The translations under genes and the position numbers were made by a program. A stretch of 64,000 bases of DNA, taken from contig OZ241991.1 in assembly GCA_965204095.1 (NCBI GenBank), positions 2,640,290 to 2,704,289 of the forward strand, in the 5' to 3' direction. The notes under the pieces were generated by a model, which did not search any database, was not told the origin of the DNA, and saw only the letters and a list, made by a program, of their open reading frames with translations. Numbering within the stretch: the first letter of the stretch is position 1; each line of letters opens with the position of its first letter. The stretch is from Bryobacterales bacterium. GTDB taxonomy: Bacteria; Acidobacteriota; Terriglobia; Bryobacterales; UBA6623. This document shows, piece after piece, positions 1,285-63,557 of this stretch.

Positions 1285-1320
1285 TTTTACGCTCTTCACG
1301 AATCACAGCTTCCCTACCCA

Positions 1321-10232: not shown

Positions 10233-10411
10233 CCTGCATGTCTCGCCACGAGGTGAGGTGAAGTGCGTGAGAGGGCCGCGTCACGACGAGGCGCTAGCCG
10301 CTTGGCGCGCGCAGGCGTACTTGAACAGTACATCGAGCACGGCAAGCAAGCGCAACGAAGTCATGGCGGTCGTATCGCGTGCTTCGGCCGTCAGATGGTG
10401 AGAAATGCAGG
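10233..10411 (+). repeat. Hairpin repeat family, copy 1 (full core, 179 bp)
   Basis: Left end cctgcatgtctcgccac, right end ggtgagaaatgcagg, central GC palindrome and GTACTTGAACAGTAC. Starts 5 nt after the 7814..10228 stop. Confidence 0.9.
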
Positions 10412-10451: not shown

Positions 10452-10475
10452 CACGAATCACGATTCACGAAACAC
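10452..10475 (+). repeat. CACGARW heptad tract (3 units) preceded by GGTTTTT
   Basis: cacgaat cacgatt cacgaaa read directly. Confidence 0.8.
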
Positions 10476-12732: not shown

Positions 12733-12783
12733 CCTGAATGTCTCACCACGCGGCGAGACGAAGTGCGTGAGAGGGCCGTCAGA
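12733..12783 (+). repeat. Hairpin repeat family, copy 2 (left arm only)
   Basis: cctgaatgtctcaccacgcggcgagacgaagtgcgtgagagggccgtcag, lying between convergent stop codons (12721 and 12807). Confidence 0.85.
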
Positions 12784-21248: not shown

Positions 21249-21520
21249 CCTGCATTTCTCACCACGCGGCGAGGCGAAGTGGGTGAGAGGGCCGTCAGGA
21301 CTAGGCTCAAGCCGGGCGGAGGAAAAAGGCACGAGCCGCTTGGCGCGCGCAGGCGTTCTTGAACAGTACGTCGAGCACGGCAAGCAAGCGCAACGCAAGC
21401 CGCCCTTGAGCGACGGCCGTGCCGCCTGCCCAGGTTTTGGGGTCACGAAACACGAGACACGAAACACGAATCACGGCCTTTTTTCGCGTGCTTCGACCGT
21501 CGGGTGGTGAGACATGCAGG
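21249..21520 (+). repeat. Hairpin repeat family, copy 3 (long variant, 272 bp, with heptad tract 21444-21476)
   Basis: Same termini and core, plus extra GGCTCAAG..CTTGAGC and GGGCGG..CCGCCC complementary inserts and cacgaaa cacgaga cacgaaa cacgaat cacgg. Confidence 0.9.
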
Positions 21521-21765
21521 TTAGGCCCGGTCAAGCCACATTGCGGTTTGTTTCGGTCGAGATGGCAAGGGCTGCATTCCCTCCGCTCTCGACTTCTACT
21601 GCCGAGCCCGATGTTCGGATGACATTCTTCTCGCGGACGGGGCTCACAAGCTCTGCTATGTGTTGGGCTGCGAGGTGTCTTGTAGAGGGCGCGAACCCTA
21701 TTGGGAGACAAGCCTCATCGCATTCAATGCGCTTACCTGACTGCGGCGAAGCTTTTTCGCCGATC

Positions 21766-26264: not shown

Positions 26265-26351
26265 CACCCAACCGGGCGGCATTCCCGGCCGCCCGGATCC
26301 ACGATACGTCCCCGCGGCAAGCACCAGGGCGAAGAGACATCACCAGCTTAT

Positions 26352-26599
26352 CCTGCTTTTCTCAACACGTGGCGAGACAAAGTGCGTGAGAGGGCCGTCA
26401 GGACGAGGCACGAGCCGCTTGGCGCGCGCAGGCGTACTTGAACAGTACGTCGAGCACGGCAAGCAAGCGCAACGCAAGCCGCCCTTGAGCGACGGCCGTG
26501 CCGCCTGCCCAGGTTTTGGGGTCACGAAACAGGAGACACGAAACACGAATCACGGCCTTTTTTCGCGTGCTTCGGCCGTCGGGTGGTGAGAAATGCAGG
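26352..26599 (+). repeat. Hairpin repeat family, copy 4 (long variant, 248 bp, heptads 26523-26555)
   Basis: Ends cctgcttttctcaacac / ggtggtgagaaatgcagg. Its right end abuts the TAA stop (26600-26602) of the minus-strand gene. Confidence 0.9.
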
Positions 26600-27391: not shown

Positions 27392-27412
27392 CCGAATCGA
27401 CTCTGATAAGAA

Positions 27413-28726
27413 CTACGTCTGATCCACGCCTCGTAGCACTTCGCCCATCTGTTCGATCACCCGATTCGTTTCCTCCTCGGTAATCACATAGGGCGGCATG
27501 AAATAGAGCACATTGCCGAGCGGCCTGAGAAGCAAACCACGTTGCAGGAACTCGCGATACAGTCGTGGTCCGATATCTGAGAGATACCCGTCATCCTCGG
27601 CCAACTCGACAATTCCCACGCCGCCGATGATGCGCACATCGTCCACGCAATTGAGTGACCTCATTGGTTCAAGCCCCTCGCGGAGCTGTTTTTCCAGAGC
27701 CGCGATTCGCTGCAGCGTGCCCTCTTCCCGAAAGATATCGAGGCTCGCCAGCCCCACGGCGCACCCCAGCGGATTCGCCGTGAACGAGTGCCCGTGAAAA
27801 AACGTCTTCGTGCGATCGTCACTCAAGAATGCTTCGTAGACGTCGTCTGTCGCAACGGTCGCAGCCAGCGGTAAATATCCTGCCGAGAGTCCCTTCGACA
27901 AGCACGCGATGTCCGGACGGACCGGTCCGTGCTCGCATGCGAACATTCGCCCGGTGCGTCCGAAACCGGTCATCACCTCGTCGGCAATCAGCAGCGTCTT
28001 GTGCTCGTCACACAGTTTTCGAACACCGCTCAAAAACTCCCGAGGCCAGACGATCATTCCGCCTGCGGCTTGCAGCATCGGCTCGACGATCACGCCGGCC
28101 ACACGTCCCTTCTCCTCCCTCAGGATCTGCTCCAGGCTGCCCAGGCAGTCGATCGCGCAGGTAGAGCGTTCCAGGCCCAAAGGGCAACGGTAGCAATAAG
28201 GCGCATCGGCCCGCGCTACACGGAACAGCAGGTCCTCGAAAGCCTTGGTAAACACCGATTCCTCGCTCACTGACATCGTTCCGACGGTGTCGCCGTGATA
28301 CGCGAACTCGAGAGAGACAAACAACCGCCGCTCTGGCTCGCCGCGATTGCTCCAGTACTGGTAGGCCATCTTCAAAGCCACCTCGACGGCCGTCGAACCA
28401 TCGTCGGAATAAAAAATCCGATGCAAGCCTTCCGGCAGAACCTCCACCAACCGCTCCGCCAGTTCCACCGCCGGCCTGTGCGTGAAGCCGGCAAAGATCA
28501 CGTGCTCGAGTTCCCGCGCCTGCCGCGCTAGCGCCTCGTTCAACTTCGGATGGCTGTGCCCATGGATATTCACCCACCAGGATGAAATCCCATCGAGGAT
28601 GCGCCGGCCGTCCTCCGTATACAGATAAATCCCTTCACCCCGCACCACCGGGATCGGTGGCGGCGCCGTCTGCATCTGCGTATACGGATGCCACAAGCGC
28701 GCAAGATCCCGATCGACCAACGTCAT
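27413..28726 (-). CDS. bioA: Adenosylmethionine-8-amino-7-oxononanoate aminotransferase
   Basis: WHPYTQM and DEVMTGFGRTG; sits in the bio operon. Confidence 0.95.
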   Translation of the reverse strand: MTLVDRDLARLWHPYTQMQTAPPPIPVVRGEGIYLYTEDGRRILDGISSWWVNIHGHSHPKLNEALARQARELEHVIFAGFTHRPAVELAERLVEVLPEGLHRIFYSDDGSTAVEVALKMAYQYWSNRGEPERRLFVSLEFAYHGDTVGTMSVSEESVFTKAFEDLLFRVARADAPYCYRCPLGLERSTCAIDCLGSLEQILREEKGRVAGVIVEPMLQAAGGMIVWPREFLSGVRKLCDEHKTLLIADEVMTGFGRTGRMFACEHGPVRPDIACLSKGLSAGYLPLAATVATDDVYEAFLSDDRTKTFFHGHSFTANPLGCAVGLASLDIFREEGTLQRIAALEKQLREGLEPMRSLNCVDDVRIIGGVGIVELAEDDGYLSDIGPRLYREFLQRGLLLRPLGNVLYFMPPYVITEEETNRVIEQMGEVLRGVDQT

Positions 28727-28764
28727 TTCAACCCTCTCGCCAACCCGGAATTCATGTCAGAAAC

Positions 28765-29433
28765 CTACTGAGCAGAATTTCTGAGAAGTGTCCCTTCCAG
28801 ATCCAAACTCGCTGCCGCCCAACTACCCACTTTCGACGCCGTCAACTCACCAAACACAGGCATCTCCCCCAGCACCACCGTGTTCCCGTAGCGCTCGATC
28901 GCCCGCCGGTTCTCCTTATTGCGCTCGCCAACCATCACGACACCCGTCACATGCAGTGAACGCGCTCGCAGAGCCTCCAGGGTCAGCAAAGTATGGTTGA
29001 TGGTCCCCAGTCCCGACCGCGCCGTCACGACTACCGGCAATCCCAGTCGCGCCATCCAATCCGTCATGAGCTCCGAGTCATTCAGTGGGACCAATACTCC
29101 CCCTGCCCCTTCGATCATCCAGGCACGATCCTTCGAAAGCCGCGACGCCATCGTTTCGAGATCCTCGATCGCGATTGTCTCGCCGGCCAGCCGGGCCGCC
29201 AGGTGCGGCGATAACGGCCGCGGAAGTCGGATGCCCTCGGTGAAGATCTCCGCTTCCGAGCAATCCCCCAACTCGCGAACGACGGCTGTGTCGTCGTCCT
29301 CCTCGATGCCGGTCTGGATCGGCTTCCAGTATCCAATCGGACCGGATCTGCGGTAACGGTGCATCAACGCGGCGTTGACGATCGTCTTACCGACACCCGT
29401 ATCCGTGCCGGTTACAAAGAGGCCGCGCGGCAT
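28765..29433 (-). CDS. bioD: Dethiobiotin synthase
   Basis: Internal start at 29433 in ORF 28765..29874. Shows [17 protein letters not shown]. Overlaps the bioF 3' end by 22 nt. Confidence 0.9.
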   Translation of the reverse strand: MPRGLFVTGTDTGVGKTIVNAALMHRYRRSGPIGYWKPIQTGIEEDDDTAVVRELGDCSEAEIFTEGIRLPRPLSPHLAARLAGETIAIEDLETMASRLSKDRAWMIEGAGGVLVPLNDSELMTDWMARLGLPVVVTARSGLGTINHTLLTLEALRARSLHVTGVVMVGERNKENRRAIERYGNTVVLGEMPVFGELTASKVGSWAAASLDLEGTLLRNSAQ

Positions 29434-30566
29434 GCCACCTTCTCTGCAAGAGCCGTGACGAGAGACGATCGAAATGCTTCGAGGTCCGCCTCGCGAAGCT
29501 TGGCGTTTACTGACACCCGAAGCCGCGCTGTTCCCCGCGGCACGGTCGGCGGACGGATGGCGCGCACGTCGAAGCCGTCTTTCTGCAAGGCCTCTGCCGC
29601 CGCCATGGCTCGCTCGTTGTCTCCCAACACGATCGGAATGATCTGCGACTCGCCTTGAGGCGCGCGAACGCCCATCTCCGTCAGCATGGCCCGTAGTTTT
29701 CCGGCGGACCGCAGCGTTCGCACGCGAAGCTCGGGTTCGCGCACAACCACACTCAACGCGGCATCCAGCGCGGCCGCCAACGAAGGCGGCGGCGCGGTCG
29801 TAAAAATAAACGTGCGCGCCCGCTGAATCAGAAAATCGATCGCCCACCGCGGACCCGCGACAAACGCCCCGCATACTCCCAACGCCTTGCCGGCGGTGTT
29901 CACGCTAAGGAAGACGTCACCGCCGACACCGGCCTGCTCGATCCGACCGCTGCCGTGTTCGCCGAAGACGCCCACGGCGTGTGCCTCGTCAACAATCAGA
30001 GCCGTGCCGGTCTCGCGGCATAGCTCCGCGTAGTCCTCGAGCGGCGCGAAGTCGCCGTCCATGCTGAACAGCGATTCGGTCACGAGGAATCGTTGTCCCG
30101 GCACCTGCTCTGAAACCAGGGCGCCGCGCAGAGCCCGCGCGTCGCAGTGCGGAAAGATGACTCGCCGCGCTCGCCCGAGCCGCATCCCATCGATCAAACT
30201 GGCGTGATTCAACTCGTCTGAAAAAACGACATCGCCTTCTTGGAGGAAGGACGACAACACACCCAGATTCGCCGCATAGCCGCTGCTGAAATACAGGCTC
30301 GCCTCAGTCCCCTTCCAATCGGCAAAGCGCCGCTCGACATCGTGCAAGGCCTTCCGCTCTCCACGGAGCAAACGGGAAGCCGTCGATCCGACGCCCTCCT
30401 GCAAAACCGCCCGCGCCATCGCGCCGCGTATCAACGGATGGTCGGCCAGCCCCAGGTAGTCGTTCGACGAGAGATCGATTCCTGAGGGACTCCACAGTTC
30501 CCTTCGCAGTCCTTGAGAGTCAAGTTCACTCAAGATGCGGCGGGTACGATCTTCCAGCTCAGCCAT
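29412..30566 (-). CDS. bioF: 8-amino-7-oxononanoate synthase
   Basis: PLP-dependent acyltransferase pattern ([17 protein letters not shown]); bio operon context. Confidence 0.9.
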
Positions 30567-31593
30567 GATCGGCTTTTACGGATAGGGGGAGCGGCGCCCC
30601 TTCGCTTCCTGTCATGGTGACCGGCTCGTTCATGAGCCGCATGCCCAGTTTATCGAGTAGTTGCCGATCCCGGTCCATCTCTGGATTGGACGTGGTGAGC
30701 AGCTTGTCGCCCATGAAGATCGAATTCGCTCCGCCAAGGAAGCACAGTGCCTGCGCCTCGTCGGATAGCGACAATCGCCCGGCGCTCAACCGCACCATCG
30801 ACGCCGGCATCAGGATGCGCGCCGCCGCCACCATACGCACCAACTCCAGTGGGTCCACGCTCCGCTGAGCCGCCAGAGGCGTCCCCTCTACTCGCACCAG
30901 CAGGTTGATGGGTACGCTCTCCGGATGTGGCGCCTGAGTCGCCAGTTCCCGCAGAAGCCCGATGCGGTCGGCGCGGCTCTCGCCCATCCCGATGATGCCC
31001 CCGCAGCAAACGGTGATTCCCGCGGCGCGCACGCGGCCCAACGTATCGAGCCGCTCCTGGTACCGGCGTGTCGTTATGATTTCACCGTAGAACTCCGGCG
31101 AGGTGTCCAAATTATGGTTGTACGCCGTCAGACCTGCTTCGGCGAGCCTTTCGGCCTGTTGTCGGGTCAACATGCCGAGAGTGCAACACGCCTCCAGCCC
31201 TAACGAGCGGACCCCCCGCACCATCTCGACAATCCGCTCGAATTCATCGCCTTCGGGGGCATCACGCCACGCCGCCCCCATGCAGAATCGCGTGGCGCCG
31301 TTGTCTCGTGCAGTGGCTGCGGCGTCTACCGTTTCGTCGACACTCAGCAGAGCTTGCGCATCGACCCCGGTCTTGTAACGAGCAGACTGCGGGCAATAGG
31401 CGCAATCCTCCGGACAGCCCCCCGTCTTGATGCTGAGTAGAGTGCATCCTTGCACTTCTAGCGGGTTGTGAAATGCACGATGCGCGATCTGGGCAAAATA
31501 TAGGAGCTCGGGCAGCGGCAGATCAAGAAGACTGGCGATTTCCTCGGCGGTCCAGTCATGTCGCAACGGGGAGCGTTGGGTGGAAGTCACCAT
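30559..31593 (-). CDS. bioB: Biotin synthase
   Basis: [11 protein letters not shown] radical-SAM motif. Start uncertain (31593 or 31623). Its stop overlaps the bioF start by 8 nt. Confidence 0.93.
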
Positions 31594-31624
31594 GCAGCCA
31601 AAGTCGTCGGTCAAGCTCTCCATT

Positions 31625-31879
31625 ATGCGACACCGCCAACTAGCAAGGGAGATTGTGGTGGAGAGACACCAGCGCAGCATCGCCAAAGCCGCCAGTTATC
31701 GCTTGCTCGGCTCCCTGCTCACCGCACTGATTGCCTACCTGTTGTGCGGCGCATGGGACGTGGCGCTGGGTTTGGGCCTGCTCGATTCCGTCGCCAAGAT
31801 GGCAGCCTATTTCCTGCACGATAGCCTCTGGGCGCGTATCAATTGGGGGGCGCCAAGACCGCCTGACTATCAGATCTAG
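31625..31879 (+). CDS. Small membrane protein, DUF2061-like
   Basis: ORF 31580..31879. Shows [24 protein letters not shown]...[12 protein letters not shown]. Divergent from bioB. Confidence 0.6.
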
Positions 31880-31973
31880 CCTGCAGGCCCCATCTGGCCG
31901 AGACGAAGGTTTCCTATTGCAGCGGATGTAATAGGATTGGTGATAGAAGATCGAAGTGCAAAGGAAGGTAGCA

Positions 31974-32417
31974 ATGGCGAAGTGGCTGAGACACATCCGC
32001 GGTGCAATCTTGATGGGATTGGCCTGGGCCGCGGCATGGGCGCCGATTGGTGTGCTGATCGGGCTGATCGTGGATTCGGATGGGTCCATGGATGAGATGT
32101 GGGTGGCGGTGGGAGGATACCCGGGCTTCCTTTGCGGGGCAGTCTTTTTCGCAGCGCTTGGAGTTTCAGAGGGCCGTCGCAGATTTGATGAATTGCCGCA
32201 TTCACAAGTCTGTGCCAGGGGGTCGATGAGTGGAGTGCTGGTCGGCATGCTTCCGTTAGTTTTGGGCTCAATTGAAACCGGCGCGCTCCCGGTGTGGCTG
32301 CTGGGAGTCCTGATCCTCGCTTCCATCACTCTGCTGAGTGCGGTCTCAGCCGCAGGTTCACTGGCGCTGGCCAAATGGTGGAGGCGCAGGAACAGCTCCA
32401 CGCCCGTGCTGACGTGA
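31974..32417 (+). CDS. Hypothetical membrane protein
   Basis: ORF 31956..32417 has four hydrophobic segments. The competing minus-strand ORF 31640..32656 looks spurious. Confidence 0.45.
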   Translation: MAKWLRHIRGAILMGLAWAAAWAPIGVLIGLIVDSDGSMDEMWVAVGGYPGFLCGAVFFAALGVSEGRRRFDELPHSQVCARGSMSGVLVGMLPLVLGSIETGALPVWLLGVLILASITLLSAVSAAGSLALAKWWRRRNSSTPVLT

Positions 32418-32426
32418 TCGAGGTGG

Positions 32427-32562
32427 ACTCGCCGCAGAAGAGGCGAATGCCGCCTGGCGCACGCAGTTCTGCTTGACCGCACCTCGAAGACGGCAAGCCG
32501 GCGCCAGGAAGTCCTGGCGGTCGTGTCGCGTGCTTGCCCCGTCAGGCGGGAAGAAAGACAGA
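32427..32562 (+). repeat. Hairpin repeat family, decayed copy
   Basis: ...gacggcaagccggcgccaggaagtcctggcggtcgtgtcgcgtgcttgccccgtcaggcgggaagaaagaca aligns to the right two-thirds of the consensus. The left arm is eroded. Confidence 0.6.
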
Positions 32563-32866
32563 CGAGCAGGGGATGCAGTCCGATCAGTCGTTGTCTTTCC
32601 TCCCCTGGCGGTGTTCGAAGACATCGATTCCCAACGTCTTCCTGACGGACGGCCACCGCCGGTCGGCATCGCTTTAGCCGCCCGCCTTGTCTGCCGCGTG
32701 ATGAGTAGAGAGATGGTCTGGATGGGATGCCTTCACTACAGTCGGATCTGTCGTTGCGGAAACAAACGAGCTCACGAACGTGATCCAGAGGTCCGTTTCG
32801 GACCGCAAAGCACTTGCCTCTCTGGCCTGTGCTAAGGTCACCCTATTGATCGAGAGGGATCGGTGA

Positions 32867-35233
32867 ATGAGCTTCGAGATTCGTAAGGTAGCCGTACTGG
32901 GCGCGGGCACGATGGGTTCTCGGATCGCGGCGCATCTTGCGAACGCCGGGGTCGAATGTCTGTTGCTCGATCTCCCCATCGAAGGCGCATCCACCGAAGC
33001 TGCCCGCAACGGCATCGCTGCGAAAGCGCACAAGGCCCTTCTCAAGTCACGCCCTCCGGCCCTCTTTACAGCAGACACGCTTCGGCGGATCGAGATCGGT
33101 AATTTCTCAGACCACCTTGCGCGTGTTTCGGAGGCGGATTGGATCATCGAGGCCGTTGTCGAGAACTTCGATGCCAAGCGCGAGATCCTCGCAAAGGTCG
33201 ATGCATTGCGTCGTCCCGGAGCTTTGATCACGACCAACACATCCGGCCTACCCGTCGGAAGGCTCGCTGAAGGCATGTCCGACGATTTCCGAAAGCACTG
33301 GCTGGGAACGCACTTCTTCAATCCGCCCCGCCACATGCGCCTGATGGAGCTGATTCCCACGCCTGAGAGCGATCCTCAAGTGGTCCACTTCGTCGCGGAC
33401 TTTTGCAGCCGGCGTCTCGGCAAAGTGGTTGTTTACGCCAACGACCGCCCCAACTTTATCGCCAACCGCATCTTGCTCTTTTCCGTCATGCACACGTTGC
33501 AGACCATGCGCTTGCATGGCTTGATGATCGAAGAGGTCGACGCCCTGACCGGGCCGCTTGTCGGACGGCCTCGCATGGCGACCTTTCGCCTGGCCGACTT
33601 CATCGGAATCGATGTCTGTCTCTTCGTTGCGGAAACTCTGCATCGCCTCGTTCCCGACGATGAAAAACACGAGGTCTACCGGCCGCCCGAATTTCTTCGC
33701 AAGATGGTCGAGCGGGGCTTCGTCGGAGACAAGGCCGGGCAAGGATTCTACAAGAAAGTCAAGGGCAAGGGCCGCCCCGAGTTGTTGGTTCTCGATCTCG
33801 AAACGTTGGACTATCGGCCGGCGAACAAACCAAGCTGGCCGGAATTGAAGCAAGCCGGGAAGGTCCGCGATCTTCCGGAGAGGATCAAGACGCTCATCGA
33901 CGCTCCCACGCCGGCCGGCCGCTTCCTATGGGAAACACTGAGTGAACTATTCCTATACACTGCGGCGCGTATTCCCGAGGTGACCGATGACATCCGGTCC
34001 ATCGACACGACCATGCGGACCGGGTTCAATTGGGAGAAGGGCATCTTCGAGATCTGGAACGGCCTCGGCGTCGAACAGACGGTTCAACGCATGAAGGACG
34101 ACGGCCGCGGGATTCCAGCGATCGTGGAAGCCGTGCTCGAGACGCCCGAAAAGTCCTTTTACCAGGAGAAGGGTCTTGAGGTCACCTACTTCGACTTCCC
34201 GGCAAAGCGCCACCAGCCGCTGGTCGATCCCGAGGGCTTCATCCGCCTTGCTTCTCTGCATAGGCGCAAGCGAATCTTGAAATCCAACGACAGCGCCAGC
34301 CTCGTGGACCTCGGTGACGGCATCGTCTGCTTGGAGTTTCATTCCAAAGCGAACTCACTCGATGAAGGCGTGCTCGGCCTGCTGCGGGAAACGATCGACG
34401 ACTGTGACGACAATCACCGGGCGCTGGTCATCGGAAATGATGGCGCTCATTTTTGCGTCGGAGCCAATCTCGCGATGCTTCTCGGATGGTGTCAATCGAA
34501 GAACTGGCAACGGATCGAGCAGGCTGTCGACGAAGTGCAAACGCTGTTCCGCGCGCTTCGCGGGCTACCCAAACCCACCGTCGCCGCCATCTTCGGGCAA
34601 ACGCTCGCCGGCGGTTGCGAACTCACGCTTCACTGCGACCGTGTGCAGGCCGCGGCCGAGACGTACATCGGACTGGTCGAGGTAGGCGCAGGTTTAATCC
34701 CCGCGGCCGGAGGCTGCACGGATTTGCTGCGCCGGCACACCGCCTCTCTTCAAGCGAAACACGATCTCACTCCTGCTACGCAAGCGGTCTTTGAACGGAT
34801 CGGCATGGCCAAAGTCTCCAACAGTGCCGAGGAAGCCCGCGAATGGAATCTCTTGCGGCCCGCCGACCTCATCACCATGAACCGAGACCACCTGCTATCC
34901 GATGCTTGGCAGACAGCTCGGCTTCTGGCCGCCGCTCCGTACCAACCGCCGCGGCGCTCCGAGATACTCGTCGGAGGACAAGGCACCCTGGCTGCCCTCA
35001 ACCTGGCGATCTATCTGCTGCACGAAGCCGGCTACATCAGTGGCTACGACCGTCACATCGGGTGCAAGTTGGCCACCGTTCTCGCCGGCGGGCCTCTTTC
35101 CCAGCCCGCTTGGGTTTCAGAGGACTATTTGCTCGGTCTGGAGAAAGAAGCCTTCCTCAGCCTCTGTGGGGAAGAGAGAACGCAGCAGCGCATAAGCCAC
35201 ATTCTGGAAACCGGCAAACCGCTCCGCAACTAG
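32867..35233 (+). CDS. Fused 3-hydroxyacyl-CoA dehydrogenase / enoyl-CoA hydratase (FadN/FadB-like)
   Basis: VAVLGAGTMGSRIAAHLANAG, HFFNPP and a C-terminal crotonase-like region (GGCELTLHCD). Its TAG stop (35231-35233) abuts the repeat. Confidence 0.9.
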   Translation: MSFEIRKVAVLGAGTMGSRIAAHLANAGVECLLLDLPIEGASTEAARNGIAAKAHKALLKSRPPALFTADTLRRIEIGNFSDHLARVSEADWIIEAVVENFDAKREILAKVDALRRPGALITTNTSGLPVGRLAEGMSDDFRKHWLGTHFFNPPRHMRLMELIPTPESDPQVVHFVADFCSRRLGKVVVYANDRPNFIANRILLFSVMHTLQTMRLHGLMIEEVDALTGPLVGRPRMATFRLADFIGIDVCLFVAETLHRLVPDDEKHEVYRPPEFLRKMVERGFVGDKAGQGFYKKVKGKGRPELLVLDLETLDYRPANKPSWPELKQAGKVRDLPERIKTLIDAPTPAGRFLWETLSELFLYTAARIPEVTDDIRSIDTTMRTGFNWEKGIFEIWNGLGVEQTVQRMKDDGRGIPAIVEAVLETPEKSFYQEKGLEVTYFDFPAKRHQPLVDPEGFIRLASLHRRKRILKSNDSASLVDLGDGIVCLEFHSKANSLDEGVLGLLRETIDDCDDNHRALVIGNDGAHFCVGANLAMLLGWCQSKNWQRIEQAVDEVQTLFRALRGLPKPTVAAIFGQTLAGGCELTLHCDRVQAAAETYIGLVEVGAGLIPAAGGCTDLLRRHTASLQAKHDLTPATQAVFERIGMAKVSNSAEEAREWNLLRPADLITMNRDHLLSDAWQTARLLAAAPYQPPRRSEILVGGQGTLAALNLAIYLLHEAGYISGYDRHIGCKLATVLAGGPLSQPAWVSEDYLLGLEKEAFLSLCGEERTQQRISHILETGKPLRN

Positions 35234-35420
35234 CCTGCATTTCTCACCACGTGGCGAGGCGAAGTGCGTGAGAGCGGCGTCAGGACGAGGCGCGAGCCGG
35301 GCGGAGGAAAAAGGCGCGCGCAGGTGTACTTGAACAGCACGTTGAGCACGGTAAGCAAGCGCAACGAAGTCCTGGCGGTCGTATCGCGTGCTTCGACCGT
35401 CGGGTGGTGAGACATGCAGG
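35234..35420 (+). repeat. Hairpin repeat family, copy 5 (187 bp; GGAGGAAAAAGG variant lacking half of the GC palindrome)
   Basis: Ends cctgcatttctcaccac / ggtggtgagacatgcagg. This is the uninterrupted reference for the intron insertion site. Confidence 0.9.
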
Positions 35421-40497: not shown

Positions 40498-40658
40498 ACG
40501 TTTCCCGCTTGAATGATCCGCACACGGGCGGAGGAAGAAGGCGCGCGCAGGCGCACTTGAACCGTACGTCGAGCACGGCATGCAAGCGTTGCGAAGGAAA
40601 AGCGAAGTCATGGCGGTCGTATCGCGTGCTTCGGCCGTCGGGTGGTGAGAAATGCAGG
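40498..40658 (+). repeat. Hairpin repeat family, copy 6 (left arm replaced by the GTTTCCCGCTTGAATGATCCGCAC module)
   Basis: From gggcggaggaagaaggcgcgcgcagg onward it is colinear with the consensus to ggtggtgagaaatgcagg. Confidence 0.85.
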
Positions 40659-42826: not shown

Positions 42827-42887
42827 GACAATGCTCCCTGGCGCGGCTTCGGGTCTCCCGGCCAGCCACACGCAAAGAAATTTCTAG

Positions 42888-43064
42888 CCTGTATTTCTCA
42901 CCACGTGGCGAGGCGAAGTGCGTGAGAGGGCCGTCAGGACGAGGCGCGCGCCGCTTGGTGCGCGCAGGCGTACTTGAACAGTACGTTGAGCACGGCAAGC
43001 AAGCGCAACGAAGTCCTGGCGGTCGTATCGCGTGCTTCGACCGTCAGGTGGTGAGAAATGCAGG
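42888..43064 (+). repeat. Hairpin repeat family, copy 7 (177-bp core; used for the pairing analysis)
   Basis: Ends cctgtatttctcaccac / ggtggtgagaaatgcagg, flanked by TAG and CTA. Confidence 0.92.
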
Positions 43065-43130
43065 CTAGCATAAATGAAGAGATATGAATCAAAGTGAAAA
43101 AGAGGGTTCATCATCTGTGTAACACCCTGG

Positions 43131-43164
43131 CCTGCATGTCTCGCCACCTGGAGAGACATGCAGG
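43131..43164. repeat. 34-bp mini-hairpin made only of the family termini
   Basis: cctgcatgtctcgccacctggagagacatgcagg has a 12-bp perfect stem identical to the family ends (G/C allele). Confidence 0.85.
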
Positions 43165-43199
43165 TTCACTCGTCCAGAGGGACCCTCCCGTGAGCACCG

Positions 43200-47477: not shown

Positions 47478-47653
47478 CCTGTATTTCTCACCACGTGGCG
47501 AGATGAAGTGCGTGAGAGGGCCGTCAGGACGAGGCGCGCGCCGCTTGGCGCGCGCAGGCGTACTTGACGGTACGTTGAGCACGGCAAGCCAGCGCAACGA
47601 AGTCCTGGCGGTCGTATCGCGTGCTTCAGCCGTCGGGTGGTGAGAAATGCAGG
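47478..47653 (+). repeat. Hairpin repeat family, copy 8 (176 bp)
   Basis: Fills the gap between the convergent trpE and murB genes. Its right end abuts the murB TAA stop (47654-47656). Confidence 0.92.
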
Positions 47654-48631
47654 TTAGAACTCTCCTACGTACTGGACCTCTTCTTCGACCGCGAATCCGT
47701 AGCGATCGGCGATTCGCTGCTTGAGCTCCTCGATCAACGAACGCAGTTCGGCGGCGGTCCCTCCGCCGGCGTTGTAGATGAGATTGGCGTGGTAGTCGGC
47801 GACGGCAATCCCTCCGCGCCGCATCCCTTTTGCCCCGACTTGGTCGAGAAAATAGGCCGAAGCCACCTTGCCCTCACGGACGGCTCGCTCGGGAACTTCG
47901 GCCGCTGCCGACGGAGGCAAGTCTTTGACGTGGAGATTCTTGAAAATGCTTCCCGCGCAGCGCATCGTGGGCGGAAACTTCTCGTCGCGAATCGCCATGA
48001 TCTTGTCCGCGCGGCTCCGAAGCTCCGCTCGATCGGCCCGCTCCAGCAGCAGACTGCAACAGAAGATCATCCAGTCCTTGTTTCGCTTGAAGACGCTTCC
48101 CCGATATTCGAACGCGCAGCCCGCGTTATCCAGTTTCCGAACCTCCTCGCCGTCATAAAAGCGAACCCACTCGATACTCTCTGAAATGGAGTGTCCATAC
48201 GCACCGGCATTGCCGTAGATGGCGGCGCCGACCGAACCGGGAATGCGGGCCAGGGTCTCCAGGCCTCGGAGCCCTGCGGTGATCGCCGCATCCACCAGGG
48301 ATTCGAGCGCTGCGCCCGCGTCCGCTTGAAGCTGCAGGCCTTGCTGTTTGATGGACTTCGCCGTGAACCGCAGCACAAGGCCTCGATAGCCCGCATCCGC
48401 GATGATGACGTTCGTGCCGTCGCCGAGAATGCAGTACGGCACCTTGTGGGTTCTGCAAATGTGAACGGTCTCCGCAAAAGCTTCCGGTTCGGCCGTTTCC
48501 GCAAAGAGATCAGCGCGGCCGCCGATCCCGAAACGGGTGTACCCTCGCAGTTCCACATCGCTCCGTACATTCAGCTTCTCGACCTGCGCAAGCGACGACG
48601 CGACGGAATCCAAAGAGACAGGGTGTGTCAT
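47654..48631 (-). CDS. murB: UDP-N-acetylenolpyruvoylglucosamine reductase
   Basis: FGIGGRADLF, GSVGAAIYGNAGAYG and a FAD-binding PCMH-type pattern. Confidence 0.95.
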   Translation of the reverse strand: MTHPVSLDSVASSLAQVEKLNVRSDVELRGYTRFGIGGRADLFAETAEPEAFAETVHICRTHKVPYCILGDGTNVIIADAGYRGLVLRFTAKSIKQQGLQLQADAGAALESLVDAAITAGLRGLETLARIPGSVGAAIYGNAGAYGHSISESIEWVRFYDGEEVRKLDNAGCAFEYRGSVFKRNKDWMIFCCSLLLERADRAELRSRADKIMAIRDEKFPPTMRCAGSIFKNLHVKDLPPSAAAEVPERAVREGKVASAYFLDQVGAKGMRRGGIAVADYHANLIYNAGGGTAAELRSLIEELKQRIADRYGFAVEEEVQYVGEF

Positions 48632-48700: not shown

Positions 48701-48734
48701 GCCTGCATGTCTCGCCACGTAGTGAGACATGCAG
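48701..48734. repeat. 34-bp mini-hairpin made only of the family termini
   Basis: cctgcatgtctcgccacgtagtgagacatgcagg, lying between the divergent murB and DUF2461 gene starts. Confidence 0.85.
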
Positions 48735-48760
48735 GCTGACCCTTTCGACGAGGAGACGCC

Positions 48761-50642: not shown

Positions 50643-50715
50643 CCTGCATTTCTCACCACGCGGCGAGGCGAAGTGGGTGAGAGGGCCGTCAGGACTAGGC
50701 GCGAGCCGGGCGGAG
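50643..50715 (+). repeat. Hairpin repeat family, copy 9, left part (split by the intron)
   Basis: cctgcatttctcaccacgcggcgaggcgaagtgggtgagagggccgtcaggactaggcgcgagccgggcggag. Joined to 52593-52720 it recreates the copy-5 variant exactly at the junction. Confidence 0.9.
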
Positions 50716-52592
50716 ATCGGGATAGGGGGGAGCCTCGCGGCTCCACCCCTCCCACACCACCGTGCATACGGGTCCGTACACGGCGGTTCGACGGATTTAA
50801 GCGGCTGCACGGGCTTCAACAGAGACGAGGCCGAGGTGCGCGAAGAAGGCATTGGATAGAGCGATCGCGAGCGCGGGACTGTTGCTGATCCGCCACGGGC
50901 CGTGGGCACTGCCAGCGGTTTGGGCCGCCAGATCCTTGCCGATGCCATGGCGGCGCAACGCCGCAAAGCGGGTGCGCCCGCGCTTCCACTGCCGCCAGAC
51001 GAGGGCGCGAAGCCGCCGTCTGATCCACTGGTCGAGTCGATGCAATACCCAGGGGGTCTCGCAGAAGCCGAAGTAGCCCCGCCACCCGACGAGGTAGCGA
51101 GACAGTTCCGCAACGAGATGGGCGAGACTGACGCTCTTGGTGCACTGCGTCAGTTCCCGGACCCGCGCCTTGAACCGAGCGAGTGTCTGCGGCGCGATGC
51201 GCCGCTTGACCGCTGGTCCGGCTGTAAAGCTGAAGCCCAGCAAGGCCCGCGCCACTGGACGATCCACCGCGCTCTTGTCTGCGTTCACCGTCAGCTTCAG
51301 TCGCCGCGCAAGGAAGCGGGTCACGCTCACCATCACCCGCTCGCCCGCCCGCCGGGACCGCACGTAAATGTTGCAGTCGTCGGCATAGCGGACGAAGCGG
51401 TGACCGCGCTTCTCCAGTTCCTTGTCCAGCACGTCAAGCATCAGGTTCGACAGCAAGGGCGAGAGCGGTCCGCCTTGCGGCGTCCCCTTGGTAGTCGGGC
51501 CGACCAGCCCGCCCTCCAGCACACCCGCGCTCAGGAAGCCGCGGATCAGCTTGAGCAGGCGTTTGTCGGCCACCCGTCTGGCCACCAGTCCCATCAGGAT
51601 GTCGTGGTTGACCCGGTCGAAGAATTTCTCCAGATCGAGATCGACCACGATGCCGAAGCCCGAGCGGATGTGGTTCTGCGCGGACTGGATTGCCTGGTGG
51701 GCCGAGCGTCCGGGCCGAAACCCGTAGCTCGCATCCGAGAAGCTGGGGTCCCACTCCCCCTGCATCACCTGCATCACTGCTTGCTGGATGAAGCGGTCGA
51801 GTACCGTCGGCACTCCGAGCGGTCGAACCCCGCCCGACGCCTTCGGTATCTCCACCCGCCGTACCGGCTGCGGGGTGTAGCTGCCGTCGAGAAGTCGGGA
51901 CCTGATCTCGGTCCAGTGGTCCTTCAGGTGATCGCCCAGCTCATCGACCCTCATGCCGTCGATGCCGGGCGCCCCTTTGTTGCGCCGGACTCGCGCCAGC
52001 GCCTTCTTCAAATTGCCGGGCTCGACGACCGTCTCCATCGACGGTCCCTGCCCAGCCGCCGGGCGTTCGGGTCCGGCACGCGCCAGGCGGGCTTCGGTCC
52101 CTTGGGCTCCGGCGCTCCGGGCTTCACCCTTCGCCTCCGGCTCCAAGGCCAGTTCCAACTGGATATTCTGCCGCTTGGTCCGCATGAGCGTACCGTCCTA
52201 CTAACCCTGTCCGTCGTTCGGGCCTTCGCCGGCGTGCCGACTACTATGCCCTCTGCTGACTTCTGCGCCGCGATCACGGGCCTTGCGGACCCGCTCAGTC
52301 CGGGACTTCCGGACACGGCGCAGACCTCCCGAGATAAGATCGACCGCCTTCACCGCGCACCCGCCGGATCTACCACCCCGGCCCTTGATGGCTATGGACT
52401 TCGCGATCATTCGCTCGCTCGTCCGGCCGGGTAGGCCTCGTATCCGGTTCTTGTCCATCGGGTCGCGGCTTTGCTCCACGCTTCCTTCAGACCCCGCCTC
52501 GCGACGACGCCCTTGCGCTTCGCTAATCCTTCGCCGCCATCGGGCTGGATAAAGGACTTGCACCCCCAAGCTGTCGATCATGCTCGGCATAC
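50716..52592 (-). mobile_element. Group II intron (1877 bp), IIC-like, inserted in repeat copy 9
   Basis: Boundaries come from comparison with uninterrupted copy 5. The minus-strand intron starts GTATGCC and ends ...CCCGAT (AY). It has about 407 nt 5' of the ORF and 81 nt 3' of it, including a domain-V-like hairpin near 50757-50795. Confidence 0.85.
50797..52185 (-). CDS. Group II intron reverse transcriptase/maturase (no endonuclease domain)
   Basis: RT blocks (GAPGIDGM, RRVEIPKASGGVRPLGVPTVLDRFIQQA, YADDCNIYV) and X/maturase region (RYLVGWRGYFGF). The short C-terminus has no HNH motif. Confidence 0.95.
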   Translation of the reverse strand: MRTKRQNIQLELALEPEAKGEARSAGAQGTEARLARAGPERPAAGQGPSMETVVEPGNLKKALARVRRNKGAPGIDGMRVDELGDHLKDHWTEIRSRLLDGSYTPQPVRRVEIPKASGGVRPLGVPTVLDRFIQQAVMQVMQGEWDPSFSDASYGFRPGRSAHQAIQSAQNHIRSGFGIVVDLDLEKFFDRVNHDILMGLVARRVADKRLLKLIRGFLSAGVLEGGLVGPTTKGTPQGGPLSPLLSNLMLDVLDKELEKRGHRFVRYADDCNIYVRSRRAGERVMVSVTRFLARRLKLTVNADKSAVDRPVARALLGFSFTAGPAVKRRIAPQTLARFKARVRELTQCTKSVSLAHLVAELSRYLVGWRGYFGFCETPWVLHRLDQWIRRRLRALVWRQWKRGRTRFAALRRHGIGKDLAAQTAGSAHGPWRISNSPALAIALSNAFFAHLGLVSVEARAAA

Positions 52593-52621
52593 GAAAAAGG
52601 CGCGCGCCGCTTGGCGCGCGC
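52593..52621 (-). terminator. Terminator-like GC hairpin plus U-run (minus strand) immediately 5' of the intron insertion point
   Basis: Minus strand reads GCGCGCGCC-AAGC-GGCGCGCGC-CTTTTTC, then the intron GTATG. Confidence 0.5.
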
Positions 52622-52720
52622 AGGCGTACTTGAACAGTACGTTGAGCACGACAAGCAATCACAACGAAGTCCTGGCGGCCATATGGCGTGCTTCAGCCGT
52701 CGGGTGGTGAGAAATGCAGG
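52593..52720 (+). repeat. Hairpin repeat family, copy 9, right part
   Basis: gaaaaaggcgcgcgccgcttggcgcgcgcaggcgtacttgaacagtac...ggtggtgagaaatgcagg. Its right end abuts the TAA stop (52721-52723). Confidence 0.9.
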
Positions 52721-53734
52721 TTAACTACCCGCCGGTGCGGGACTGTAACGGGGGGACAACAGTGAACCGTCGTCGATCGGAAGGCTCAACCGCACGAACC
52801 GCGGCGTGTTGGCGAAGGCGACCGTGACGTACTTGTAGAAAGAGCCATCCAAGGCGCGCGGCGCGGTTGGTAGATCCACGACTTTCTTCGTTCCATCCAG
52901 AAGAGAACTCAGCTCGTCGGCTCCCGGCAGCCCGGACGGAGCCTCGCCGGCGAGAGGCGGCCGCAGACTGCTGTAAACCGTATCGCCATCGATCGACACG
53001 ATGTGAATCTCGTCGATGGGACTGGAGTTCACAATGCGCAGTAGCCGGCTGTTGATTTCCTCCGTCGACCACCCGTCCTCCTCGGCGCCCACGACGAAGT
53101 ACTCCGCGAGCCTGGCCTGCACAACCATCTGCTTGCCGAGGATCTCCTCGAACACGACTCTGATCTCGTCCAGTTGGTCGGTAAAGGCGAAATCCAGCAG
53201 ATCCGGCTCGCCGAAGGCTGCCATCACCGCGGTCATGACCGGCGAGGTATAGGAGCCGCTCAGGAGATCGTGCTCCTCGAAGGCAAGCGCATTACCCACT
53301 TGCACGATCCGCTTGCGGTCGACGCCGTTGACCCCGACATACTTGTAGACTTCCTGATCGATCTCCCGCACCTGCGCCGATTGCGTGATGACGTGGTCGC
53401 TCTCGATGGGGGACGCAAGCAGGGCGTAGAACTTCGAGGCCTGCGGCTGCACAGCGGGATTGGGATTGAACCGGAAGGGCATCAGCGCGCCGGTTTCGTC
53501 CCGGACGTTGGTGAGATAGGCCACGCCCTGCTCGTCGGTGATCCAGAACTCGTCGAGCACCGTGGTCGAAGCGATGACTTCGAGGGTCTCGATCACTTGT
53601 GCGGCGTCATGCCCTCTCGCTTCGGCCACCGCCACAAGATGCGCGGCGATGCGTGCCTGGGCCGTCATCTGGCCGTCCAGCATCGCGTCAAGGGCGCGTG
53701 CGACCGTGGCTAGCGAGATTTTGGGCATTTCCAC
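52721..53734 (-). CDS. Hypothetical protein with an internal tandem duplication (two ~150-aa sensor-like halves)
   Basis: Residues ~20-75 (MTAQARIAAHLVAVAE...LDEFWITDEQGVAYL) parallel ~190-245 (MVVQARLAEYFVVGAE...IDEIHIVSIDGDTVY). No signal peptide or TM segment seen. Confidence 0.6.
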   Translation of the reverse strand: MEMPKISLATVARALDAMLDGQMTAQARIAAHLVAVAEARGHDAAQVIETLEVIASTTVLDEFWITDEQGVAYLTNVRDETGALMPFRFNPNPAVQPQASKFYALLASPIESDHVITQSAQVREIDQEVYKYVGVNGVDRKRIVQVGNALAFEEHDLLSGSYTSPVMTAVMAAFGEPDLLDFAFTDQLDEIRVVFEEILGKQMVVQARLAEYFVVGAEEDGWSTEEINSRLLRIVNSSPIDEIHIVSIDGDTVYSSLRPPLAGEAPSGLPGADELSSLLDGTKKVVDLPTAPRALDGSFYKYVTVAFANTPRFVRLSLPIDDGSLLSPRYSPAPAGS

Positions 53735-55948: not shown

Positions 55949-56190
55949 CCTGCTTTTCTCGCCACCTGGCCAGGCGAAGTGCGCGAGAGGACCGTCAGGA
56001 CGGGGCGCGAGCCGCTGGGCGCCGGCAACACGGCCTGTGCGGTTTTTCACAAAACACGAAACACGGCCTTTCATGCCTCGGGGTTTCGCATTTCCGGTTT
56101 TTGTCTTTGCATCACGAATCACGAGACACGAGACACGAATCACGGCCTTTGTATCGTGTGCTTCGGCCGCCGGATGGCGGGAAATGCCGG
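55949..56190 (+). repeat. Hairpin repeat family, copy 10 (divergent long variant, 242 bp, heptads 56048-56066 and 56113-56145)
   Basis: Ends cctgcttttctcgccac / atggcgggaaatgccgg, with an A-U to G-C compensatory change. Its right end abuts the TAG stop (56191-56193). Confidence 0.85.
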
Positions 56191-58053
56191 CTACCCCGGA
56201 GTGTCGTAGCGCAGGTCCCAGTTGCCGAGTTTGTGCAAGGTGGCCCCCGATTGTTGGATGACGGGCTCACCGGCGCGGACCCAGTCGGCGATCTCTTCGC
56301 GATGGCCGAGCCGCCGCAGGGCTGTCCAGGAGCGGCTGTAATCGCAACGCTGGTAGCAGTCCCAGAAAAACAGGTTCTCGACCCCCGCTTGATAGAGCCC
56401 GTGGGCGCGACGGCGATAATCCTCGGGAGTCATTTGCCGCGGCAGCAGGCTCGCCGCCACCTTGCATGAAGTGCCCCTGGTGATCCGCAGGAAGTACTCG
56501 GCGGCGCCGGGGTCCACGAACGTGTCCTGACTGCTGTTCAAACTGTCGGTCGAGGTGTAGGGGATCAAGGTGTCGACCAGCCCCTCGCGGATCCACTCTT
56601 CCAGATCCATCGCGTAGTAGAGGTTGGCCTGCTCGGTGCCCATCACGATGGCCGACACCTCGAAGGGACGCTTCCGGCCTTGCCGTCGGGCCTCGTCGTC
56701 GAGCGTTTCCCGAACCTCGCGCATGAACTGCGTGAGGTACGTGGCGCGGTGCTTCAACCAGCGGGGATCGCGTTCGTCGAGCTTGCGCGCATCTTCGCCA
56801 TACTTCTCCTCGAACCCCTTTACGATGGGCTCTTCGTACTCGACGAGTGGCGGCCTGCGGTTGTAGAGCAGGCAGATGCCATCGATGGGATAGGCCGCGA
56901 TCTCGCGAAACACCGAGAGCACGTATTGCCGCACGCCCTCATAGGCATAGGAAAGACGAGGCGTGGGCTGCCCTTGCCGATTGCGTCCCCGCCACTCGGG
57001 ACGCCGGTCGTAGAGTCCCCCGGTGTTCCATTCGTCCTCGGGCACGGGGAAGTGAAAGCCCGCCACCCGATACGAAGCGTGAAACTCGAGACCGGCTTCA
57101 CGGGTATGATCCGCCGCGACACGTAGTTGGTCGATGCCTTTCTCGCGAAACACCCGGAACGATTCCGCCGCGAGCCGGTCGCGAACCCGGAAAGGGTCCT
57201 GGACCCAGTCATTTGTCGCTGGCAGACCGATCTTCGTGGGGTAGAACATCTTGTCTCCCCCGCCGGCCTCCCAATAGATCCGGGAGAAATCGGTGTCGCG
57301 GTAGGGCTCGATCTCGCGCCGGATGTCGGCCTCCGTTGACGGCCGCAACCAGCTCACGTATCCCCAGGCATCGTTGTGCGCGTACAGGCGGCGGGTGTCT
57401 TTGCGACGGCGCTCCGCCTCGAGCTGTTCGACTTCCTCGTCGGACAAGGGCGTCAATTTGACATAGGCCAGCCACAGCGGAAGGCAGGAGTTCGCCACCG
57501 ACGCTTCGTTTTCGGGGACAAGCCGGGGGCAGAACTGCCGCAGGACCAGTCCCTCGCCGGTCAGGTCGGCGGTCTTCCAGTACAGGTCGTCGATGCGGGT
57601 TCGGGTGTCGAAGGTGGTTGGGCGAATCTCGTAGTCTCTACGGCTCTGTTTCTTGCCGACAACGTCGTTGTGGGTGATGAGACTGAAGGTGGATTCGCTG
57701 TCGAGCCGCATCTCGAGCCGCGACTCGCCGTAACGCGAGCGAAGCCCGAAGTGGATCGCGTGCCAGCCCTTGCGGTTGAGGGGCAGCGTGATCTCGGGAG
57801 CGGCGGTGTTGTGCCCCGCGACGAGCATGACTCCTTCGGTCTTGTCGCTCGCATAGTCGAGCAGGCGCCAGTGGTGGCGCTTGGGCTTTCGCGAAAGAGC
57901 CTCCGACGGCCGGCATTGACTGAAGTCCGAAAGATACACCGCCCGCTCTTGCCCATAGGCTCCAGAACGAAGAGCGCCGAGTAGAGTTCCCGCCGCGAGA
58001 ACCTCCCGTCTGCTCCACAGGCCGTTTTTAGTGTGTTCGTAGTTCATTGGCAT
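56191..58053 (-). CDS. Tat-signal hypothetical protein (620 aa)
   Basis: WSRREVLAAGTLLGALRSGAYG twin-arginine signal and strong codon bias. I cannot place the family; possibly a glycoside-hydrolase-like barrel. Confidence 0.65.
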   Translation of the reverse strand: MPMNYEHTKNGLWSRREVLAAGTLLGALRSGAYGQERAVYLSDFSQCRPSEALSRKPKRHHWRLLDYASDKTEGVMLVAGHNTAAPEITLPLNRKGWHAIHFGLRSRYGESRLEMRLDSESTFSLITHNDVVGKKQSRRDYEIRPTTFDTRTRIDDLYWKTADLTGEGLVLRQFCPRLVPENEASVANSCLPLWLAYVKLTPLSDEEVEQLEAERRRKDTRRLYAHNDAWGYVSWLRPSTEADIRREIEPYRDTDFSRIYWEAGGGDKMFYPTKIGLPATNDWVQDPFRVRDRLAAESFRVFREKGIDQLRVAADHTREAGLEFHASYRVAGFHFPVPEDEWNTGGLYDRRPEWRGRNRQGQPTPRLSYAYEGVRQYVLSVFREIAAYPIDGICLLYNRRPPLVEYEEPIVKGFEEKYGEDARKLDERDPRWLKHRATYLTQFMREVRETLDDEARRQGRKRPFEVSAIVMGTEQANLYYAMDLEEWIREGLVDTLIPYTSTDSLNSSQDTFVDPGAAEYFLRITRGTSCKVAASLLPRQMTPEDYRRRAHGLYQAGVENLFFWDCYQRCDYSRSWTALRRLGHREEIADWVRAGEPVIQQSGATLHKLGNWDLRYDTPG

Positions 58054-61725: not shown

Positions 61726-61902
61726 CCTGCTTTTCTCACCACATGGCGAGGCGAAGTGCGTGAGAGGGCCGTCAGGACGAAGCGCGAGCCGCTTGGCGCG
61801 CGCAGGCGTACTTGAACAGTACGTTGAGCACGGCAAGCAAGCGCAACGAAGTCCTGGCGGTCGTATCGTGTGCTTCGACCGTCGAGTGGTGAGAAATGCA
61901 GG
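61726..61902 (+). repeat. Hairpin repeat family, copy 11 (177 bp)
   Basis: Ends cctgcttttctcaccac / agtggtgagaaatgcagg, flanked by TAG and CTA. Confidence 0.92.
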
Positions 61903-63292: not shown

Positions 63293-63557
63293 CCTGCATG
63301 TCTCACTACGTAGCGAGGTGATTTGCCTGCATGCTGCGGGCAGTCGTGAGAAGACCGCCAGGACGAGACGCGAGCCGCCCGCGCCGGCAACACAGCCCTG
63401 AAGGGGTTTTTAGCGAATCACGAGTCACGAATCACGCCCTTTCACGCCTCCGGATTTCGCATTTCTGGTTGTTTTGTTTTTGCATCACGAGTCGAGTCAC
63501 GAAACACGAATCACGGCCTTTCCGCGTGCTCCAGCCGTCGGGTTGTGAGAAAGGCGG
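63293..63557 (+). repeat. Hairpin repeat family, copy 12 (divergent long variant with heptads 63412-63437 and 63486-63516)
   Basis: Left end cctgcatgtctcactac, right end gggttgtgagaaaggcgg, with internal GGCAACACAGCC and heptad modules as in copy 10. Confidence 0.8.

Follow-up and report, generated by a model that had tools for sequence, protein, structure and literature searches.

As a rule, MITEs are regarded as double-stranded parasites without strand preference. The 177-nt foldback element at positions 42888-43064 of the window (the whole 64-kb stretch of Bryobacterales DNA analysed here) raises the question whether such an element can carry a fold that belongs to one strand only and, if so, whether that fold acts in RNA or in single-stranded DNA. 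A sequence-only reading had claimed that the arms of the element pair through G.U wobbles but not through A.C, so that the fold is specific to the + strand. We therefore compared both strands of the element, of its copies in the window and in other genomes, and of distant relatives. The claim was borne out, and it is true beyond the near-identical copies from which it had been made.

The rod of the element and its copies in the window

The element ends in CCTG...CAGG, is flanked by CTAG on each side and has the terminal inverted repeat CCTGYATTTCTCACC (Table 1). Its terminal 17 nt pair with the opposite end with a single U.G at position 5, exactly as had been described, and a G.G opposition lies directly inside this terminal pairing. 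The entire rod consists of 48 pairs, 41 of them Watson-Crick and seven G.U (one in the terminal repeat and six inside), interrupted by four oppositions (G.G, G.A, G.A and G.G) and one bulged A, and A.C oppositions are absent. The earlier description of an inner helix of 27 positions with five G.U pairs had the + strand pattern right, namely wobbles without A.C, but its counts were slightly too low. Both central palindromes that it named are present. The first is GCGCGCGCC-GCTT-GGTGCGCGC, with one wobble within; the second belongs to the conserved centre, which persists in relatives with 65-71% identity and into which an IS110-family IS has inserted in other genomes. With RNA parameters, folding yields -120.3 kcal/mol (z -12.2) for the + strand and -87.3 kcal/mol (z -7.2) for the - strand. 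With DNA parameters, the values are -62.8 kcal/mol (z -9.0) and -43.1 kcal/mol (z -3.7). About 13 kcal of the 33 kcal strand gap in RNA is due to composition (shuffle means -71.2 on the + strand vs -58.3 on the - strand), and the remainder is due to the wobble positions.

The terminal-repeat pattern matched 24 times in the window, where 0.22 matches are expected. A blastn search with the 42888-43064 copy recovered the 13 copies and fragments that had been counted before, and every oriented one lies on the + strand; two 36-nt mini hairpins come in addition. The full copies in the window all show an identical direction of fold asymmetry. In the copy at 21249..21520 the stop codon of the upstream gene sits in the left TTAG. 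The compensatory change noted earlier in the copy at 55949..56190 (ctcGcc/ggCggg) is real.

Table 1. Features of the element under study and its copies in the window.
Feature	Position	Strand	Evidence
Foldback MITE copy under study, 177 nt (CCTGTATTTCTCACC...GGTGAGAAATGCAGG)	42888..43064	+	sequence, folding energies
Target-site duplication CTAG, 4 bp, left copy	42884..42887		flanking sequence
Target-site duplication CTAG, 4 bp, right copy	43065..43068		flanking sequence
Terminal inverted repeat, left, 17 nt	42888..42904	+	pattern scan, pairing
Terminal inverted repeat, right, 17 nt	43048..43064	+	pattern scan, pairing
Conserved centre, GTAC-TTGAACA-GTAC hairpin, then GTTGAGCAC	42967..42995	+	alignment with relatives
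Full copy, no clean duplication	10233..10411	+	blastn
Left-end fragment	12733..12782	+	blastn
Long variant with CACGAAW heptamer module, TTAG duplication	21249..21520	+	blastn
Long variant, TTAT duplication	26352..26599	+	blastn
Partial copy, degenerate	32437..32556	+	blastn
Full copy, 187-nt variant, CTAG duplication	35234..35420	+	blastn
Right-part fragment	40540..40658	+	blastn
Full copy, TTAG duplication	47478..47653	+	blastn
Split copy, left part (group II intron between)	50643..50715	+	blastn
Split copy, right part (same copy as 50643..50715)	52596..52720	+	blastn
Long diverged variant with compensatory A-U to G-C change	55949..56190	+	blastn
Full copy	61726..61902	+	blastn
Long variant, degenerate	63293..63555	+	blastn
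36-nt mini hairpin, terminal repeats alone	43130..43165		pattern scan
36-nt mini hairpin, second	48701..48736		pattern scan

The mini hairpins at 43130-43165 and 48701-48736 are perfect (GCCTGCATGTCTCGCC..GAGACATGCAGG) and lack a clean 4-bp duplication; internal deletion may have left them as remnants, or they may form a mini family of their own. Furthermore, the bodies of the elements appear to be exchangeable. Locus L077 (RHO3_bin_12) and window 25238-33249 are orthologous, with 91-97% identity, which makes the window the DNA of a close relative; the L077 genome is about 95% identical. At the site of the 26352-26599 insertion, L077 (1114-1292) carries a canonical 179-nt body and the window a 250-nt heptamer-bearing body, which shares 97% identity with the copy at 21327-21528. 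The body swap at an orthologous site, together with the identity to another copy, indicates that internal modules are exchanged between copies.

Such heptamers (CACGAAW) occur in tandem, with 35 matches to CACGAWWCACGA in the window that all lie on the + strand (35:0; 1.5 expected). They are found inside the long MITE variants (21444-21476, 26523-26555, 56048-56145 and 63419-63516) and alone at window 118-182, 366-391, 788-806, 1251-1283 and 10452-10470. In other loci they are co-oriented with the MITE at about 50:11. A second repeat family occupies window 1-1400, with an 85-nt unit containing GGCCGTCAGACATTTCTCCTGGAGCGAAC at 20-104, 691-775 and 1152-1236, alongside heptamer arrays and several tandem repeats of 10 and 20 nt. 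The 85-nt unit adjoins MITE copies in L032, L035 and L051.

A MITE family with 4-bp target duplications

Scanning genome contigs with an exact 18-mer from the right end of the element matched at least 91 stretches. Almost all of the matches listed are in Bryobacterales MAGs (Acidobacteriota), many of them sponge- or coral-associated; among them are the complete chromosome OZ242366.1 and MAGs with bin names (APA, RHO3, Plut) that point to sponge or coral hosts. Gammaproteobacteria, Dehalococcoidia and Rhodothermales MAGs are also among the matches listed, on short contigs, and may be binning errors; matches in Clostridia and Lachnospiraceae MAGs were discarded as chance 18-mer matches. No similar DNA was found in plasmids, phages or viral contigs. 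The 88 full-length copies among the matches listed have unrelated flanks, and some are nested in other copies. The family is a MITE. Our literature search found no paper describing the 177-nt element, and the family is undescribed so far, while its kind, a MITE with an IS5-type target, is already known.

The flanks define the limits of the element. An identical 4-mer stands on both sides of 45 of the 88 full copies (CTAG 26, TTAG 12, CTAA 3, TTAT 2, GTAG 1, TTAA 1). When copies were delimited at 179 nt, the base before the left TA equalled the last base of the element in 68 of 88 (44.6 expected, at most 59 in 2000 shuffles), and the first base equalled the base after the right TA, likewise in 68 of 88 (53.4 expected). 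Taken together, the flank-base matches and the identical 4-mers show that the element is 177 nt long and that the duplication is 4 bp, NTAN and mostly YTAR. The limits 42888-43064 drawn by the sequence-only reading agree with this analysis. IS5 has the target 5'-YTAR-3' (PMC5009759), and IS711 makes a TA duplication within YTAR (PMC2266754). The 4-bp YTAR duplication is the target signature of IS5-group DDE transposases and differs from the TA duplication of IS630 or IS711. An IS630-type MITE with TA duplication was ruled out by the direct 4-bp duplication of sites that are not palindromic (TTAG, CTAA, TTAT and GTAG). Terminal complementarity as in IS630/Tc1-mariner was rejected as well, since positions 1 and 179 matched in 58 copies vs 52 expected, which is not above chance.

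In 16 of the 88 full copies, and in 6 of the 13 in the window, the duplicated site carries the stop codon of the flanking gene. The stop codon is TAG or TAA and may lie on either strand; the six sites in the window are 21245-21248, 26600-26603, 35230-35233, 47654-47657, 52721-52724 and 56191-56194. Insertion at a stop codon rebuilds the stop, so that the adjoining gene stays intact. The placement of these MITEs at gene ends is thus due to the duplicated site often being a stop codon.

In the roughly 1.4 Mb of loci examined, no autonomous IS with matching ends was found. In the same loci a tblastn search with InsH gave no IS5-like transposase, and no Y1/RAYT transposase was matched. Widely spaced pairs of terminal repeats were considered as a parent element and rejected, as what they enclose proved to be ordinary genes, the group II intron or inserted IS110-family elements. 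IS630-family ISs with ends TAGTGTTCCGTCCCAGAAATA occur in the same genomes (L079 1816-2970; L015 about 5980-6960; L091 1-190), and these copies were dismissed as a parent because their ends are unrelated to those of the MITE. The CCTGCATTTCTCACC ends and YTAR duplications recur in further foldback MITE families, 128-321 nt in length, whose bodies are unrelated and show no strand asymmetry; they were found on metagenome contigs (L125 3469-3679, L093 1803-1932, L143, L160, L181, L101 and L118). One transposase lineage appears to serve this superfamily of MITEs, as far as shared ends and target sites can tell.

The MITE itself is a target for other elements. An IS110-family IS of 1440 bp (DEDD_Tnp_IS110, Transposase_20) sits at the central site GTACTT|GAACAGTAC of many MITE copies (L075 2599-4038 and 4935-6374; L013, L055, L065), with a different one in L039 (6772-7728). 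Its orientation relative to the MITE is constant, and several short-read contigs stop at the junction. The MITE centre is a specific target of the IS110-family IS. In the window, a group II intron (50716-52595, - strand) with Rfam D1-D4 and domain V matches and an RT/maturase ORF at 50797-52185 (RVT_1, GIIM) lies in a MITE copy between GGCGGAG and GAAAAAGG, opposite to the MITE orientation.

Strand asymmetry over long divergence

When both strands of each copy were folded, the + strand was the more stable one in all 63 distinct copies, with a mean difference (+ minus -) of -25.6 kcal for RNA and -13.0 kcal for DNA. In a 70-pair structure applied to these 63 copies of about 179 nt, standard pairs make up 96.2% on the + strand vs 83.8% on the mirrored - strand. 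The pairing percentages and energies thus uphold the view that the asymmetry is a property of the family. The outer rod of the consensus contains seven G.U and four purine.purine oppositions vs no A.C and no pyrimidine.pyrimidine opposition, and this 11:0 split has a two-sided p of about 0.001 if both directions are equally likely. Several pairs pass through a wobble, such as pair 20-160, which is C-G in 18, U.G in 36, U-A in 5 and C.A in 2 copies.

We then turned to distant relatives, which were collected in a metagenome scan with a pattern that excludes the canonical ends; they have the same ends and length and 65-71% identity. Ten could be oriented by internal homology, and all ten, down to 66% identity, favour the + strand, by 8-29 kcal/mol. 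Equal stability of both strands in diverged copies had been named as an outcome that would speak against a one-strand fold, and the opposite was found. These ten relatives were aligned with two weakly oriented relatives, five diverged genomic copies and the window copy. For the + strand of this diverged alignment, RNAalifold gave -64.8 kcal/mol and 54 pairs, 35 of which have compensatory changes. A separate run on the reverse complements gave -21.5 kcal/mol and 21 pairs, that is, the terminal helix and little more. The + strand has 91.3% of its cells paired (shuffles 73.1%) and a covariation score of 0.483 (shuffles 0.172). The cells of the 54 pairs hold 104 G.U and 14 A.C, a tally that is arithmetic on the + alignment. 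Wobbles of the diverged clade lie at new positions (for example columns 33-161, 42-152 and 43-151) that are Watson-Crick in the window family; the L149 relative has 63 Watson-Crick pairs, seven G.U and one A.C. Unpaired motifs are invariant or almost so in the relatives, in particular the GCGA stretch, with its CGA in the GGCGAAG loop, and the central GTAC..GTAC-GTYGAGCA. The one-strand rod of about 50 pairs is conserved by covariation.

Families with the same ends and another body (L125, L093, L160, L143) are strand-symmetric. Consequently, the asymmetry belongs to the body of the 177-nt element and is not a requirement of the transposase.

A symmetric protein-binding palindrome or a cruciform would act as double-stranded DNA; the difference between strands would in that case go back to chance in a single master copy. 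The near-perfect terminal repeats and the strand-neutral Watson-Crick covariation would fit such a structure. However, the 11:0 split of the outer rod makes chance unlikely, the bias reappears at new positions in diverged clades, and neither duplex nor cruciform has a reason to favour G.T over A.C. We regard this explanation as highly improbable.

Recent copies give a weaker signal. Independent changes from Watson-Crick to G.U and to A.C were 31:23, which is not significant (115 copies with clean arm alignments; shared changes 17:13, singletons 14:10). An apparent sign of selection in propagating lineages among 63 copies (G.U in shared changes 21:7, in singletons 14:12) was gone with 115 copies, and a count with 121 copies was set aside because non-homologous inner arms of long variants contaminated it. 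The count in young copies and the diverged alignment together indicate a constraint that is visible over long divergence and not within young copies.

The balance in young copies bears on an explanation without function. If copies are locked in one orientation relative to some directional process, strand-biased mutation (loss of C on the + strand) would turn G-C pairs into G.T and create purine.purine oppositions. Palindromy itself would persist because the transposase needs ends that match and because template switching corrects quasi-palindromes. This would account for the balanced singletons, for the G on the + strand in 11 of 11 non-Watson-Crick consensus oppositions and for the composition of the element (G 66 vs C 47). 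Double changes from Watson-Crick to Watson-Crick are also strand-neutral, being above shuffles on both strands. Yet the substitution spectrum at paired sites among copies is strand-symmetric (C>T 30 vs G>A 28; A>G 9 vs T>C 11), and the element has no surplus of T over A (31 vs 35), contrary to what a C>T pressure would produce. The number of rod pairs is undiminished at 65-71% identity, for example in L149, and families with the same ends lack the asymmetry. Mutation bias in orientation-locked copies is, in our judgement, an unlikely cause of the rod.

Regional orientation and the site of action of the fold

Adjacent full-length copies among the matches listed agree in orientation at 27:1. The neighbouring gene does not set this orientation, since the gene contexts relative to the element are mixed (sense co-directional 31, convergent 31, antisense co-directional 25, divergent 22). 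Local hopping or gene conversion was rejected as a cause as well, because pairs at the same locus are 93.0% identical and pairs from different loci 93.7%. Since proximity brings no greater similarity between copies, the uniform orientation stems from the region itself rather than from copying nearby. On OZ242366.1 the sampled loci are 29 on the - strand vs 8 on the + strand, and they are grouped in patches instead of dividing the chromosome into two halves.

Neither GC skew nor GC3 residuals nor oligomer skews correlated with the orientation of the elements. There is a weak excess of T>A at third codon positions on the element-sense strand (47 loci vs 25, p about 0.01), and the window runs counter to this AT3 effect. 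In the window itself, C exceeds G on the sense strand in 8 of 8 blocks. GC skew is negative in 26 of the 32 2-kb bins of window 1-64000, and the GC3 residual, corrected for gene orientation, is negative in 8 of 8 8-kb blocks, going from -0.14/-0.18 on the left to -0.03 on the right. The fading residual may mark the approach to a skew switch point.

IS families, among them IS5a, are reported to show replication-linked orientation biases and to have transposase peptides that bind the beta clamp; the direction of the bias differs between chromosomes (Gomez et al., 2014, PMC3971601). Those biases resemble the MITE family in being family-specific; they are statistical and MITEs were not described, whereas the family here reaches 27:1. 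Replication direction is the obvious candidate for the regional orientation, although the link is unproven here.

Is the fold used in RNA? ERIC/IRU and Correia (NEMIS) elements are foldback repeats of 100-180 nt at gene ends with a TA duplication; they are described as acting in mRNA, where their transcribed hairpins have orientation-dependent effects, and the ERIC and Correia hairpins have been shown to be RNase III/E substrates or to affect mRNA. We know of no report of regional co-orientation for them. By analogy, a + sense read-through hairpin of the 177-nt element could serve as a 3' end stabiliser, a terminator-like barrier, an RNase III/E substrate or a small RNA. G.U is a standard RNA pair, the energy gap is larger in RNA than in DNA (33 vs 20 kcal), and covarying stems with conserved loop motifs are typical of structured RNA. 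A gene reads into the left end in 62 of 109 copies, and many copies abut stop codons (16 of 88, and 6 of 13 in the window). Unlike ERIC and Correia elements, the 177-nt element has an orientation that ignores gene direction (sense 31 vs antisense 25) and stays uniform through convergent, divergent and antisense contexts, and its duplication is 4 bp and not TA. Both neighbours of the 42888-43064 copy are - strand genes. The rod is not followed by a T-tract, and an internal promoter could not yield an RNA with the left arm. A processed 3' UTR fragment, which the sequence-only reading had proposed, is not supported in view of the gene-independent orientation, the two flanking - strand genes and the missing T-tract. 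An intrinsic terminator was excluded: the terminator scan calls no element, and the flanks are without a T-rich tail. Among Rfam covariance models there was no match at the gathering score and, even at E = 10, none beyond two chance-level matches at E 2-3. A role in RNA is therefore possible but, in our estimate, doubtful.

The one-strand stem and the uniform regional orientation, taken together, suggest, but do not prove, that the element acts as single-stranded DNA. Our preferred reading, which we hold tentatively and at somewhat less than even confidence, is a non-autonomous Bryobacterales foldback MITE whose + fold acts on single-stranded DNA at the replication fork and not in mRNA. A transposase supplied in trans would move the MITE. 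Exposure of the + strand at the fork would allow the strand-specific fold to form on single-stranded DNA, and this fold would bias insertion or survival to one orientation. Several points count against a role of single-stranded DNA. The search of about 1.4 Mb of loci gave no transposase with matching ends, orientation did not correlate with GC skew or GC3 and is patchy on OZ242366.1, and the 31:23 split among recent copies is not significant. The 4-bp duplication implies a staggered cut of a double-stranded target, for which a single-stranded element is not needed; the symmetry of the end-sharing families implies that the transposase does not require the asymmetry; and G.U stabilises RNA more than G.T stabilises DNA. 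We thus favour, as an unproven ranking, a replication-linked role of single-stranded DNA first, a role in RNA second and orientation-locked mutation bias third.

Known systems share parts of this picture. Like IS5-group MITEs, the element is small, has terminal inverted repeats and no ORF, and occurs in many copies with unrelated flanks and 4-bp NTAN/YTAR duplications. It differs from them in a rod that extends far beyond the terminal repeats, in one-strand covariation and in regional co-orientation, and no cognate IS was found in the loci examined. Integron attC sites are imperfect palindromes recognised as a one-strand hairpin in which unpaired bases set the strand choice; they form co-oriented cassette arrays beside the integrase and have GTTRRRY cores. 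Membership among attC sites was rejected, as the ends here are CCTGCATTTC and the copies, which have terminal repeats and a 4-bp duplication, are scattered among ordinary genes at distances of 2-9 kb. IS200/IS605 elements with their PATE derivatives, and REP/REPIN with RAYT, resemble the 177-nt element in two respects, a folded single strand that is strand-specific and an orientation tied to a directional process of the chromosome (PMC5027513). They lack terminal inverted repeats and target duplication, whereas the 177-nt element has both; with no Y1/RAYT in the loci, membership in either group was discarded. A more far-reaching version of the preferred reading is that a duplication-making transposon is handled as a folded single strand at the fork, that the + hairpin with its conserved unpaired purines is the recognised substrate or stability determinant, and that the copies record replication or another chromosome-wide direction. 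We consider this quite unlikely; if true, the element would be a hybrid of DDE-type MITEs and single-strand elements such as IS608 and attC.

A conserved one-strand structure combined with regional co-orientation is unusual for a MITE family. Three features come together here: covarying stems and conserved loop motifs on one strand over about 35% divergence, a regional orientation that is almost perfectly uniform and independent of gene direction, and a high copy density, with 13 copies and fragments in 64 kb. If the fold acts in RNA, hundreds of symbiont genes would bear orientation-dependent 3' structures. If it acts on DNA, the family would naturally mark, in uncultured genomes, which strand is exposed or which way replication runs, and single-strand biology would be extended to a duplication-making element. 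Either way, an IS110-family IS and a group II intron use the MITE family as an insertion site, and this is relevant to the genome plasticity of sponge symbionts.
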